Assembly: GCA_030754595.1 (NCBI GenBank)
Contig: JASLZZ010000094.1
Location: forward strand, 1 to 54,845
Direction: 5' to 3'
Length of the DNA stretch: 54,845 nt
Source: Nitrospinota bacterium
Lineage (GTDB): Bacteria > UBA8248
The notes beneath the pieces were generated by a model. It saw nothing but the letters and a program-made list of their open reading frames with translations, did no database searches and was not told the DNA's origin. A program made the translations under genes and the position numbers. Shown one piece after another: positions 1,115-5,558 of the stretch. Every line of letters begins with the position of its first letter. Positions within the stretch are counted from its first letter, which is position 1.

Positions 1115-1609
1115 ATGGTGGAAAAAAAAGAGATTCGGCTCGCCGAAATTTTCAAGATGTTGTTGGTGAAAACGGGGGTTAGCCTCTGATGCGCGCCGTC
1201 TCTGGTCCCGGGTCTCGGGGCCGCTATCATCGGCGCGCTGGGTAGCCTGACGGTTTACCGGCCCTATTTCGTTGCATTTGCAATCGTCGCTCTTGTGTGG
1301 ACGTTCTTTCGCCATTACGGGTGGTGTATATCAAGGTCTTGGGGAGAAGGTTTCTCGGCGATTTTCGTTTGCCTCCGTCCCTCGAGCGAACGGGACGCCG
1401 GGCTCTACATCGGTTCGCTCCTCGTCCTTGCTGTGATTATCGCGCCGCCTTGGAGCGTGACCCAGTATTTCAAACCCGCGAACCCTTGCGCGGTATCCTA
1501 TCCTCGGCAGAGGGTCGTCCCTGCTGCGGAATCTCCGCGTCCCATAATTCAACAGATTTCGGAATCCAGTAATCCCTGCGATTCCGGGAATCAGCACTCG
1601 GTCCATTAA
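1115..1609 (+). CDS. MerT-like membrane protein, predicted selenoprotein (U-C motif), 164 aa
   Basis: ATG 1115 after GGAGAGG; TGA 1187-1189 in SL-U-CAPSL; LTVYRPYF motif; same frame as ORF 1295-1609; hairpin 1204-1222. Confidence 0.75.
1204..1222 (+). promoter_or_regulatory. SECIS-like hairpin
   Basis: GGTCCCG-ggtct-CGGGGCC; loop starts 21 nt after UGA. Confidence 0.65.
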
Positions 1610-1676: not shown

Positions 1677-1732
1677 AGTGTGGGTTTAAATCCGGAGGAC
1701 GCCCTCCGGCCCGCGCCGCCGAGGTGAATATA

Positions 1733-2206
1733 ATGACGGATACCGAAGCGAAGAAAAGAATTGGTTGGATGGGTTCTATTTTTTCAGGAGCTGCCTCCAC
1801 TGCTTGATGAGTCCCGGCGCTGGCTCCGAGTCTCGGAGCCTCGATTTTTGGCGGCCTTGGCAGCTTAACGGCCTATCGCCCTTACTTCTTGATTTTTGCG
1901 GCCGCTTCGCTGGCGTGGATGTTTTTTCGCCACTTTAAGAACCGCGTCTCCATCGCATGGACACGGGGCGCGGCTGCGGTACTTGCCGAGTTTAAGCCAC
2001 GAAGCGGCACGGACTACCGCCTTTACCTGGGAGCGGCAGCGGTGATCCTCTTGATGGCCTTTCCGCAATGGGGACGGCCTCTTCTTGCGAAGCCTAACAA
2101 CCCCTGCGCGGCGGCGAATCCTTGCGCTACGACAAATCCTTGCGCAGCGGTAAACCCCTGCGCGGCGGCGAATCCCTGCGGTGCCAAGCCCCCAAGCCGA
2201 AAGTAA
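1733..2206 (+). CDS. MerT-like membrane protein, predicted selenoprotein with tandem U-U and NPCxxx repeat tail, 157 aa
   Basis: ATG 1733 after GAGGTG; TGA TGA at 1805-1810 in AASTA-U-U-VPALAP; LTAYRPYF; same frame as ORF 1889-2206; hairpin 1822-1840. Confidence 0.78.
1822..1840 (+). promoter_or_regulatory. SECIS-like hairpin
   Basis: GGCTCCG-agtct-CGGAGCC perfect stem; loop 21 and 18 nt after the two UGAs. Confidence 0.7.
2099..2182 (+). repeat. 18-bp coding tandem repeat x5 (NPCAAA-like)
   Basis: Units start at 2099, 2117, 2135, 2153, 2171: NPCAAANPCATTNPCAAVNPCAAANPCG. Confidence 0.9.
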
Positions 2207-2949: not shown

Positions 2950-3357
2950 ATGGACGCGATGACGATTGGCATACTTGCCCGGAAGGCGGATGTGAACGTC
3001 GAGACCATCCGCTATTACGAGAGACGCGGCCTCATAGAGTGTCCCCGGGAGCGGCGGGGCGCATATCGCGTCTATCCCGTTGAAACCGCATCCCTTGTCC
3101 GAAGCATCAAACGGGCGCAATCGCTCGGATTTTCGCTCAAGGAAATCAAAGAGCTAATGTCGCTTCGCCTGGACGAGGAAGCGATGTGCGGCGACGTTTT
3201 GGCCCGGACGGAAAAAAAGATCGCCGAAATAGACGAGAAACTTCGTTCGCTTCGGGCGGTGAAAAAACAACTCGTCCGGCTCGCTTCCGCTTGCCGTGAG
3301 ACGGCGCCCGCCTCGGAGTGCCCGATTCTAGAGGCGTTCGAGGGAAAAGGCGTGTAA
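2950..3357 (+). CDS. merR: MerR family heavy-metal responsive regulator
   Basis: MTIGILARKADVNVETIRYYERRGL HTH; AQSLGFSLKEIKEL; three Cys (MCGD, SAC, ECPIL) spaced like the Hg(II)/divalent MerR ligand set. Confidence 0.88.
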   Translation: MDAMTIGILARKADVNVETIRYYERRGLIECPRERRGAYRVYPVETASLVRSIKRAQSLGFSLKEIKELMSLRLDEEAMCGDVLARTEKKIAEIDEKLRSLRAVKKQLVRLASACRETAPASECPILEAFEGKGV

Positions 3358-3455
3358 TGCCTCCCCCTCCCTCCCCCAGCGCGGGGAATGTTTTTCCTCC
3401 CCCAGCGTTAAAGAAAGGTCCGGGCAAGTGCTTTCTTGGTTGGGAGAAAAAACCG

Positions 3456-4136
3456 ATGAACCCCAAAAACAATGGAGTTTTCGCAGGAATTTTGGGCGTT
3501 TCGTGTTGCGTCGTCCCTCTGATTCTAGTCGCGGCGGGGCTGGGCGGGAGCCTGCTCACTGTTTTTTTGGTGAAATATAAAGTTTATTTGATGACCTTGG
3601 CCGTGGCGGCGTTGTCACCGGCCTAGGCGCAGTACCTGCGCGAGGCGAAGGAATGCGAGACGCAGTTTTGCGCGATTACGGGCGGAAAATACCGTAAGTG
3701 GATGCTCGGGGCGAATACGGCGATGGTCTTGTTTTTCCTGATTGTCACCTACACCCCGGCGGGCGCGCTCGTGGGTGTCGATTTTCAAAGCGATGAATTT
3801 CCTGGGGCCGTGTCGAGTCTTCGGAAAGAGGCTACAGCCGCCATCCCTCCACTTGACCCGCGGTTCACATCGGGCAGGCCGGTCCGGGAGAGAGTCGATA
3901 AGACGCGCTACGAGCGGCTGACCCTTCGTGTCGAGGGGATGAGCTGACCTTTCACCTGACCGCAACTGGTCGCAGGGGCCTTGGACAGGCTTCCCGGTGT
4001 GAGAGTAAAAAACGTCAGCTACGCCAAGGCGCAGGCTGAGGTGCTCTACGATCCCCAAAAGGCCACCGTCGCTCAGATGGCCGGGGCTCTCGCTAAATTT
4101 AAATACAAGGCCTATCCGCTGAAAGCATCGAATTAA
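3456..4136 (+). CDS. MerT-like transporter fused to an HMA (MerP-like) domain; two predicted Sec; interrupted by in-frame TAG (possible pseudogene)
   Basis: Single frame: VSCCVVPLIL...ALSPA-TAG(3624)-AQYLR...C..C...LRVEGMS-TGA(3945)-PFT-TGA(3957)-PQLVAGALDRLPGV...AEVLYDPQKATVAQM...TAA 4134-4136. Confidence 0.75.
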
Positions 4137-4149
4137 GGGACAAATTGAA

Positions 4150-4407
4150 ATGAACCGCGAACCCTTGGAGACGGGAGACCAGAGAGAGGACCCGCCGGCG
4201 AAAGGTTTCGCCGGGAAGGCGCTTCTGGCGGCGGCTTTTTTTACCTGCCCCTGCCACCTCCCGGTTTATTCCGTTCGCTTTGGAGGGACGGCGCTGGGCG
4301 CCTACCTTGCCGGGTACGTGTGGTTTTCCGCCGCCGTCCTTACGGTGGTGTTTCTCTTTTCCTTCCTCGCGGGGATGCGAATGATTAAAGCCGGGGAAGC
4401 AACCTAG
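4150..4407 (+). CDS. merE: MerE-like mercury transport protein
   Basis: FFTCPCHLP...GGTALGAYL motif and two TM segments. Confidence 0.75.
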   Translation: MNREPLETGDQREDPPAKGFAGKALLAAAFFTCPCHLPVYSVRFGGTALGAYLAGYVWFSAAVLTVVFLFSFLAGMRMIKAGEAT

Positions 4408-4518: not shown

Positions 4519-4598
4519 CGCCCCCGTTTTGCGCTTGAATGATGCCGGACCGCAATACTTCCATAGCCGTCGTCGACCCAGCCGAAGGAGTTTTTGCC

Positions 4599-5558
4599 GT
4601 GGCAGAGAGAGATTTTGAAATCATCATTGTGGGTGCGGGCCCGGCGGGTTTGACGGCAGGCCTTTACGTCTCGCGCTCGAAGATCAGTGTCATGTGTTTT
4701 GAAAAGCTCGCCCCGGGCGGCGAAATTCTCAATACCGAGCACGTTGAGGACTATCCGGGTTTCGAAATGATTGGCGGTCCGGAGCTCGCTCAGAAATTTA
4801 CCGATCATGCCGTTAAATTCGGCCTCAAAATCGAGATGGAGGAAGTCTCCGAAATCCGAAAAGACGGCGACGATTTTTTCGTCAAGACCGACATGGGCGA
4901 ATACCGCTGCGGCGCGGTGATTTATACGGCTGGCGGTTTTCCGCGAAAACTCGATATTCCAGGCGAGGAGAAATATGCCGGAAAGGGAGTGAGCTACTGT
5001 GCCTTATGCGACGGCGCTTTTTTCCAGGATGAAGTCATCACCGTCGTCGGCGGGGGGAACAGCGCGGTCGAAGAGGCCCAGTTCCTCACGAAGTACGGCT
5101 CGAAAGTCTATCTCGTTCACAGGCGCCAAGGGTTTCGGGCGCACCAAGTGGCCGTGGACAAGCTCACGGAAAACGAAAAGGTCGAATTCATTCTCAACCA
5201 TGTGGCCGAGGAAGTGATCGGAGACGACAAGGAGATGAAGGCGATTCGCCTGAAAAATGTCAAAACCGGCGAAACGCAGGATATTGAAGCCAACGGGCTT
5301 TTCGTCTTCGTCGGGTTTATCCCGAACACCGATATCATCAAGGAAGATGTGGAAAAAGACGAAAGCGGGTTCATCATTACCGATCAGAACATGGAGACAA
5401 ATATACCCGGCCTTTTTGTTGCCGGCGATTGCAGGAGCCAGTTAATCAGGCAGATTACGAACGCCTCCGGCGATGCGACAACGGCGGCCGTGGCGGCCGA
5501 AAAATACCTGGAAGCCCAGGAAGACGCCAAGAAAGAGTCCGCCCCCGCCGCTTCGTAA
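4599..5558 (+). CDS. trxB: Thioredoxin-disulfide reductase
   Basis: GAGPAGLTA, GVSYCALCDG, VGGGNSAVEEA, GLFVAGD; GTG start after GAAGGAG. Confidence 0.95.
   Translation: MAERDFEIIIVGAGPAGLTAGLYVSRSKISVMCFEKLAPGGEILNTEHVEDYPGFEMIGGPELAQKFTDHAVKFGLKIEMEEVSEIRKDGDDFFVKTDMGEYRCGAVIYTAGGFPRKLDIPGEEKYAGKGVSYCALCDGAFFQDEVITVVGGGNSAVEEAQFLTKYGSKVYLVHRRQGFRAHQVAVDKLTENEKVEFILNHVAEEVIGDDKEMKAIRLKNVKTGETQDIEANGLFVFVGFIPNTDIIKEDVEKDESGFIITDQNMETNIPGLFVAGDCRSQLIRQITNASGDATTAAVAAEKYLEAQEDAKKESAPAAS

Follow-up and report, generated by a model that had tools for sequence, protein, structure and literature searches.

Tandem UGA Codons and a Putative Selenocysteine-Selenocysteine Dyad in a MerT-Like Membrane Protein Gene of Nitrospinota

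Introduction

Two consecutive in-frame UGA codons occupy, in a gene that we call gene B, the place of the vicinal cysteine (Cys) pair of MerT-like membrane proteins. Gene B lies at positions 1733-2206 (forward strand) of a 54,845-nucleotide (nt) stretch of DNA from a Nitrospinota bacterium (assembly GCA_030754595.1, contig JASLZZ010000094.1), and this whole stretch is hereafter called the window. We consider it likely that the gene encodes a membrane protein of the MerT superfamily with two adjacent selenocysteine (Sec, U) residues, that a single selenocysteine insertion sequence (SECIS) serves both UGAs, and that the two residues form a diselenol site for a soft metal. The window is contig C94 of a 3.55-Mb metagenome-assembled genome (G000), which is 97% complete.

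Sec insertion in Bacteria is usually described in terms of one UGA, one hairpin, and a fixed distance between them. A natural and conserved UGA-UGA pair followed by one hairpin is a direct test of the spacing that SelB and the ribosome tolerate, and also of the recruitment of a second SelB complex to the same SECIS one codon further on. If the reading is correct, a vicinal diselenol inside a membrane helix would represent a type of metal site that is new to biology, for which a very high affinity for mercury is to be expected. The interest of the gene thus lies chiefly in the mechanism of double recoding and in the chemistry of the diselenol site. There is also an ecological side, in that the use of selenium would be tied to the handling of mercury in the Nitrospinota, a lineage that is abundant in the deep ocean and that figures in the discussion of mercury methylation in the sea.

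A Gene Read through Two Stop Codons

Gene B begins at ATG 1733, 6 nt downstream of a Shine-Dalgarno-like GAGGTG that can be read from the sequence (1721-1726, forward strand), and terminates with TAA at 2204-2206. Codon 25 is TGA (1805-1807) and codon 26 is again TGA (1808-1810); in other words, the tandem pair that the first-pass annotation had reported is present at 1805-1810 of the forward strand, where it is aligned with the Cys-Cys of Cys-type MerT-like proteins. When TGA is read as U, the product has 157 residues, with U25 and U26 in the context ...GAASTA-U-U-VPALAPSLGAS...LTAYRPYF. By itself, TGATGA is not an unusual pattern: when all six frames of the 3.55-Mb genome were scanned for it, with a minimum of 15 open codons ahead of it and 40 behind it, 411 sites were obtained, nearly all of which sit in obviously non-coding frames of this GC-rich genome, and the scan yielded no further candidate. 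Because the bare pattern is so common, the case for gene B rests on comparison, and four comparative observations lift it above chance: the conservation of the pair in six genomes, its alignment with Cys-Cys, selection on both of its sides, and a conserved hairpin.

Five orthologues that carry both TGAs could be aligned for an estimate of the proportions of nonsynonymous and synonymous change (pN/pS). For codons 2-24, which precede the dyad, the ratio was 0.07-0.52 in 9 of the 10 pairs, the tenth pair (G000-G050) having no synonymous change; for codons 27-120, which follow it, the ratio was 0.16-0.43. By this measure, the codons on the two sides of the dyad are under equally strong purifying selection. 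The part of the gene that precedes the stops is therefore coding in the same frame, and the coding conservation on both sides of the UGA by which selenoproteins are recognized is found here. The first-pass annotation had named a start only downstream of the dyad (for example, at TTG 1889), with the upstream 24 codons unconserved, as a finding that would speak against its reading; these codons turned out to be both conserved and selected, and a start only downstream is rejected.

In the protein databases, this part of the gene is lost. The eight close homologues in a set of 5.8 billion proteins all lack the N-terminus, and when a profile of the 13 family genes (see below) was run against 1.84 billion representatives, the best 9 of the 413 matches began at profile position 27 or later, just past the dyad. 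Gene callers thus halt at the dyad in every close relative on record. Because the entries are truncated at this point and no Pfam or NCBIfam model captures them, these genes are invisible to annotation and to metaproteomic search databases. A reassignment of TGA in the genetic code was considered and rejected, as TGA is an ordinary stop codon too: it terminates 26 of the 65 open reading frames of at least 200 amino acids in the window, as well as the gene B homologue of genome G040. Judged from these comparisons, gene B is a real gene, in which both UGAs are almost certainly read through.

The machinery for Sec insertion is encoded in the same genome. G000 has SelA, SelB, and SelD, together with a tRNA-Sec (73.6 bits, anticodon tca), so that selA, selB, selC, and selD are all represented, and a tRNA-Sec was also found in all five of the other genomes with a tandem TGA (72.6-75.7 bits). 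The SelD gene of G000 (C16:24543-25505) itself contains one in-frame TGA.

Homology of the Dyad with the Cys Pair of MerT

In an explicit alignment, both dyad columns are Cys-Cys (CC) in seven database MerT-like proteins and in gene C, a further MerT-like gene of the window. From rank 10 on, the profile matches are full-length, and all 13 that were fetched carry Cys-Cys (...ASACCIGP...YRPYF). Among the Cys homologues, MerT and MerTP-type proteins come closest, and within the family itself a Cys stands at one or the other dyad position in the relatives that have the order Cys-Sec (CU) or Sec-Cys (UC). The alignment of Sec with Cys that is expected of a selenoprotein is thus seen at both positions, and the vicinal pair of the first transmembrane helix of MerT is present at the homologous columns of gene B, as a predicted Sec-Sec. 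One database relative of the UC clade, P0033, has an N-terminus (MAEKGGAGGEVPSLLPGLG) with seemingly G-E at the dyad columns, that is, neither Cys nor stop, which might mean that this protein lacks the pair or that its start was mis-called.

Hydropathy gives three hydrophobic stretches in gene B (approximately residues 13-43, 50-68, and 94-114); the N-terminus and the loop at residues 69-93 are basic. The topology would be MerT-like, with the N-terminus inside, the dyad in the first helix, and the C-terminal tail, which consists of five NPCA repeats, outside. It should be mentioned that NPCA(A) repeats, found at 2095-2190 of the window, also occur at two other places in the same genome (C14:11995-13343 and C41:474-644), and that they fill database proteins with signal-peptide-like N-termini (P0014, P0021, P0024, P0026, and P0029). 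They may represent an extracytoplasmic Cys-repeat module for metal binding.

A Single Hairpin behind Both UGAs

The candidate shared SECIS lies at 1822-1840 of the forward strand and consists of a perfect 8-bp stem with the loop GUC, GGCTCCGA-GTC-TCGGAGCC. It starts 14 nt past the first UGA and 11 nt past the second (22 and 19 nt to the loop), just as the first-pass annotation had described it, and it is the only conserved hairpin that follows. With a predicted folding energy of -13.4 kcal/mol, the 19-nt hairpin folds better than its shuffled versions (z = -3.9), which is not true of the 71-nt context after the dyad as a whole (z = -0.6). In the alignment of the family, the helix formed by columns 36-43 with columns 47-54 is paired in 103 of 104 cells across 13/13 genes, and the GUC loop is invariant in all 13. 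Two stem pairs show compensatory changes (U-A to C-G, and G-C to A-U in G005), sliding the partner strand by 1-3 columns lowers the pairing to 26-69%, and RNAalifold predicts the same helix and nothing else notable.

PMC13188914 gives a model of the bacterial SECIS (bSECIS) with a loop of 3-9 nt, a stem of 4-16 bp, a G in the first two loop bases, 16-37 nt from the UGA to the loop, and a minimum free energy of at most -7.5 kcal/mol. The hairpin agrees with this model for both UGAs. The 11-nt spacing of the second UGA is the one stated for the minimal SECIS of Escherichia coli in a review (PMC8659212).

The spacing was compared over the family. In every relative with a single Sec codon, whether this is followed or preceded by a Cys codon or followed by a tryptophan (Trp, W) codon (UC, CU, and UW), the distance from UGA to stem is exactly 14 nt (22 nt to the loop). 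The tandem (UU) genes of the genus of G000 have 14 and 11 nt, and in that of G040, where one codon is added as in its CU sisters, the distances are 17 and 14 nt (25 and 22 nt to the loop). Because one UGA thus always keeps the 14-nt distance and the other deviates from it by 3 nt, each UU gene has the appearance of a single-Sec gene whose Cys codon next to the UGA has turned into TGA, with no new signal added. The earlier proposal that one SECIS serves two consecutive UGAs is borne out to this extent: there is one conserved hairpin, both UGAs lie within the bSECIS spacing window, and the insertion of Sec at each of them is what we infer from this arrangement.

Dyad States among the Nitrospinota

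A six-frame search for the family covered all 51 Nitrospinota species genomes. It detected 13 genes in 9 of them and no match in the other 42. The UU state (TGA TGA) is found in six species genomes of three genera: G000, G049, G050, and G047, which belong to one genus, and G037 and G040, which belong to two others. The UC state is found in four genes, which are paralogues in G000, G049, G050, and G048; the CU state in two genes (G041 and G005); and the UW state (TGA TGG) in one, a paralogue in G037. G040 is a single-contig genome. The tandem TGATGA is also kept in two metagenome contigs and in Logan contigs of runs X15 and X16, which are independent assemblies. Scans of genome contigs and metagenome contigs with alignment A1 gave only 3 and 2 loci, respectively, all of them duplicates or near-duplicates of genomes already included.

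All four combinations that the first-pass annotation had suggested looking for among homologues (CC, UC, CU, and UU) occur, with UW in addition, in one paralogue and in one strain variant of gene B. The paralogue with the UC state in the window is gene A (1115-1609, forward strand), adjacent to gene B, and its TGA TGC was found where it had been noted, at codons 25-26 (1187-1192). A hairpin homologous to that of gene B is present at 1204-1222, 14 nt past its TGA. The same annotation had seen a series of CC, UC, and UU within one locus. UU, UC, and a TGT TGC are indeed all present, but the CC gene, gene C, belongs to another MerT subfamily, has its pair at codons 17-18, and contains an in-frame TAG.

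A maximum-likelihood tree that included nine CC proteins placed the 13 Sec-type genes in a single clade, separate from the CC set (support 100/99). Inside this clade, one group (support 97/95) unites the UU genes of g1 and g4 with the UC and UW paralogues, and the UU gene of G040 lies outside this group, together with the CU genes. Forcing all UU rows into one clade costs 7.55 log-likelihood units (p = 0.034 in the approximately unbiased test), a result that is only suggestive because the constrained group was named after a first tree had been seen. These observations suggest that UU arose twice, or that it was reduced several times to single-Sec forms; either way, it has been kept across genera.

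Proposed Mechanism and Alternative Readings

We propose that Sec has taken the place of both Cys residues in the vicinal pair by which the first membrane helix binds metal, and that both UGAs would be decoded by SelB and Sec-tRNA(Sec) via the hairpin within the coding sequence (1822-1840), with 14 nt, the usual spacing of the family, for the first and 11 nt for the second. A Cys codon may have given rise to the second Sec codon by one base change (TGC or TGT to TGA), which would have been possible because the hairpin already lay within the tolerated distance. The Sec-Sec dyad would form a diselenol or diselenolate site that captures a soft thiophilic metal, most likely mercury(II) foremost, and the captured metal would be passed across the inner membrane. 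In this scheme, the periplasmic NPCA-repeat tail would act as a collecting arm, and the roles of acceptor and reductant would fall to three neighbours, the Sec-glutaredoxin, the Sec zinc-ribbon protein, and the thioredoxin reductase. Expression would be controlled by the MerR regulator of the locus. That the protein captures and imports a soft metal, mercury first, and hands it to small cytosolic Sec/Cys proteins is, in our estimation, a little better than an even chance. With somewhat more confidence, we favour a wider statement: consecutive UGAs would both be read as Sec from one SECIS in the coding region, spacings of 11, 14, and 17 nt being tolerated, and the resulting natural Sec-Sec dipeptide would constitute a vicinal diselenol site in a membrane helix, in two branches of one Nitrospinota family, and its role would be to scavenge or traffic, by means of selenium, mercury or a different soft metal, rather than to confer classical resistance. 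UU genes are kept in three genera of deep-sea nitrite oxidisers with a selenoprotein-rich, mer-like locus, in which no mercuric reductase was found.

Several observations weigh against this reading. The score of gene B with the Pfam MerT model PF02411 is 24.7 bits, below the cut-off of 32.9 (E 2.6e-5, residues 13-113 to model positions 13-111), and no NCBIfam model comes near its cut-off (17.6 versus 150 bits for NF010314), so that gene B is, by its scores, a distant member of the MerT superfamily outside the curated family. The second, cytoplasmic Cys pair of Cys-type MerT is missing: a C-x5/6-C in the loop between helices 2 and 3 is seen in five of the seven aligned database CC homologues, and gene B has no Cys at residues 27-123. 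A second Cys pair between helices 2 and 3 is also a feature of the MerT of Tn501. In the genome, the best candidate for the mercuric reductase MerA scored 355 bits against the TIGR02053 cut-off of 454, and because no MerA lies above the cut-off, classical mercury detoxification is not supported. As to the hairpin, its covariation is modest (double changes in three cells only, a level that 7 of 500 shuffles reach), the stem in G050 has one U-U mismatch, and part of its conservation is at the protein level, because it overlaps the conserved peptide L-G-L-G/P-S-L-G-A. An independent seawater-metagenome contig of run X17 (depth 4.4) has G at 1810, which makes TGA TGG, one of only 2 differences in 435 nt of gene B. 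Both this contig and the G037 paralogue read TGA TGG, and Trp thus appears to be tolerated at the second dyad position. The second UGA may be costly, or may be decoded as Sec only partly, and a change to TGA TGG may be a way of avoiding that cost. An AlphaFold2 model built from alignment A2 was poor (mean predicted local distance difference test score 63, below 50 for residues 1-35 around the dyad) and was not used.

Four other readings were considered. If only the UGA at 14 nt (the first in gene B, the second in G040) is Sec, and the other is read by a near-cognate Trp or Cys tRNA or only rarely as Sec, the main product would be U-W or U-C. The exact 14-nt spacing in all single-Sec relatives, with one UGA of every UU gene at 14 and the other off by 3, fits this, as do the TGA TGG of the G037 paralogue and of the X17 contig. 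Yet TGG and TGC are each one mutation away, and TGA is found at both codons in six species genomes that have diverged to pS values of up to about 0.6-0.8; both UGAs lie within the 16-37-nt window of the bSECIS model (PMC13188914); 11 nt is the spacing given for the minimal E. coli SECIS (PMC8659212); and the X17 variant is a single contig of depth 4.4. We regard a single Sec as unlikely. A larger share of our doubt, although still well short of an even chance, goes to a Sec-Sec protein with another task, such as the uptake of Cu(I), Ag, or Cd, the feeding of Hg or Se elsewhere, or a diselenide or selenylsulfide redox relay in the membrane that is serviced by the glutaredoxin and thioredoxin reductase. 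Such a task would agree with the sub-threshold MerT and MerA scores, with the lack of a cytoplasmic Cys pair in gene B, with the conserved neighbours (a Sec-glutaredoxin and a Sec/Cys zinc-ribbon protein), and with the thioredoxin reductase in the locus. Against it speak the MerR regulator, the two mer-type dyad operators, the HMA domain, and the MerE-like gene of the same locus, as well as the fact that the nearest Cys homologues are MerT and MerTP-type proteins.

Two further readings concern the stops themselves. The double stop might end a 24-residue leader peptide, the hairpin being a terminator or attenuator and the protein starting downstream, for example at TTG 1889. Every database entry has indeed been called with a downstream start, and the hairpin followed by TCGATTTTTG was flagged as terminator-like, which counts against a role as SECIS. 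The T-run is not conserved, however, its place being taken by TCGGTGTTC in G047, TCGGTGTTG in G037, and GCCGCTATCATC in the UC genes; the upstream codons are selected in frame and align with the N-terminus and first transmembrane helix of the Cys-type MerT-like proteins, whose CC coincides with the dyad; and translation from 1889 would leave out both the first membrane helix and the invariant motif YRPYF. On the lack of a conserved T-run, the upstream selection, and the CC alignment, we rejected this reading, which we consider very improbable. Hardly any weight at all falls on the origin of the two stops in a pseudogene or an assembly error. Gene C at the same locus does have an in-frame TAG, but TGATGA recurs in six independent species genomes (one of them closed), in the two metagenome contigs, and in the X15 and X16 contigs, and purifying selection acts on both sides of the dyad; nothing supports an artefact, and it too was rejected.

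Relation to Known Selenoproteins and Mercury Transporters

MerT-family selenoproteins with one Sec (CU) were already known; what is new here is the predicted UU dyad. A MerT-family selenoprotein is in print as a 'putative mercuric transport protein' (PF02411, ABB16073.1) in PMC13188914 and PMC9312934; the 2026 inventory in PMC13188914 enters the MerT family as 'C/SxxU, 1 Sec'; and a small MerT group with a CU motif (WP_250634603.1) is mentioned by Haft and Gwadz (bioRxiv 10.1101/2022.07.06.499078). Like gene B, these are MerT-like membrane proteins with Sec at the metal-binding site, and CU relatives of the clade of gene B occur in G041 and G005; unlike them, gene B has Sec codons at both residues of the dyad. 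No UU motif is among the 119 families in the table of PMC13188914 (2026). Nothing relevant on adjacent Sec residues or on tandem or consecutive UGAs in Bacteria was found in a search of literature that can be read without subscription.

With the canonical MerT of Tn501 and Tn21 (PF02411, NF010314), gene B shares the three hydrophobic segments, the basic character of N-terminus and loop, and the vicinal pair of the first helix, and it lies in a locus that would likewise be controlled by MerR. It differs in its sub-cut-off scores, in having no second Cys pair in the loop, in the lack of a MerA above the cut-off in its genome, in the additional NPCA tail, and in the predicted Sec-Sec in place of Cys-Cys. 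Selenium in metal handling of the mercury or copper type is also the theme of NF045683 (MerT/CopZ fusion-like heavy metal transport selenoprotein) and NF041115 (UxxU), the latter with two UGAs close together in one gene, and gene C of the window distantly resembles both. Gene B, however, reaches only 22.3 bits against the NF045683 cut-off of 375, and it is far below that of NF041115 too; moreover, the two Sec residues in these families are separated by at least two residues, whereas those of gene B would be adjacent.

Vicinal pairs with one Sec are known elsewhere. The C-terminus of mammalian thioredoxin reductase is Gly-Cys-Sec-Gly. Other CU or UC selenoproteins are SaoC, SaoL, HgcA, and MbdU (PMC13188914, Table 1). 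All of these proteins have a vicinal chalcogen pair, and several are linked to the chemistry of mercury or organometals, but in each of them one Sec stands beside a Cys, never beside another Sec.

The mer-Like Locus around Gene B

The neighbourhood of gene B contains a MerR-family regulator, a MerP-like HMA domain, and a MerE-like gene. All features below are on the forward strand. Before gene A, a MerR-type promoter/operator is found at 1032-1062 (TTGATT, the perfect dyad CCGTAC-TATA-GTACGG at 1038-1053, and TATAGA), and a second one lies before the glutaredoxin gene at 2269-2305 (TTGACC and the dyad CCGTAC-CTAG-GTACAG at 2275-2290). Both palindromes, CCGTAC-N4-GTAC(G/A)G, stand between -35-like and -10-like hexamers with long spacers, which is the MerR-type promoter layout. 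There are four matches to CCGTAC-N4-GTAC, with 0.94 expected, and two of them are in promoter position; we take these dyads to resemble the mer operator of Tn501 and Tn21. Before gene B (approximately 1654-1690), only a degenerate version of the palindrome is present. The spacer between genes A and B also contains a perfect 7-bp hairpin, CCGGAGG-ACGC-CCTCCGG (1692-1709), with no T-run behind it.

Downstream of gene C (3456-4136) are a gene for a MerE-like small membrane protein with C-P-C (4150-4407) and one for a thioredoxin-disulfide reductase (4539-5558; TIGR01292, 368 bits, above the cut-off). A motif like the HgcA cap helix was not matched in the six-frame translation of G000, a search limited to that one query. 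RNA run X19 provided a single 215-nt contig, on 3301-3515, and none on gene B, and this says nothing about expression.

Gene C consists of a MerT-like N-terminus with Cys-Cys (TGT TGC at codons 17-18, 3504-3509), an in-frame TAG at codon 57 (3624-3626), and then an HMA domain with the motif G-M-S-U-P-F-T-U (TGA at 3945-3947 and 3957-3959). The two predicted Sec residues in U-P-F-T-U are three residues apart, unlike the usual CxxC spacing, and the motif is kept in G047. The TAG is the same in contigs of three metagenome runs and corresponds to Trp in the G047 orthologue, which seems to be frame-shifted upstream of this point. The HMA part of gene C may be made from an internal start at ATG 3702.

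Between genes B and C are a glutaredoxin-like selenoprotein gene with U-P-P-C (2353-2598, TGA at 2398-2400), a LysW-like zinc-ribbon protein gene with C-P-V-U (2613-2909, TGA at 2649-2651), and the gene of the MerR-family regulator (2950-3357). The first two have counterparts in other genomes of the family: in G040, a glutaredoxin with U precedes the MerT-like gene, and in G041, a zinc-ribbon homologue with Cys in place of Sec is located directly upstream of the CU MerT-like gene.

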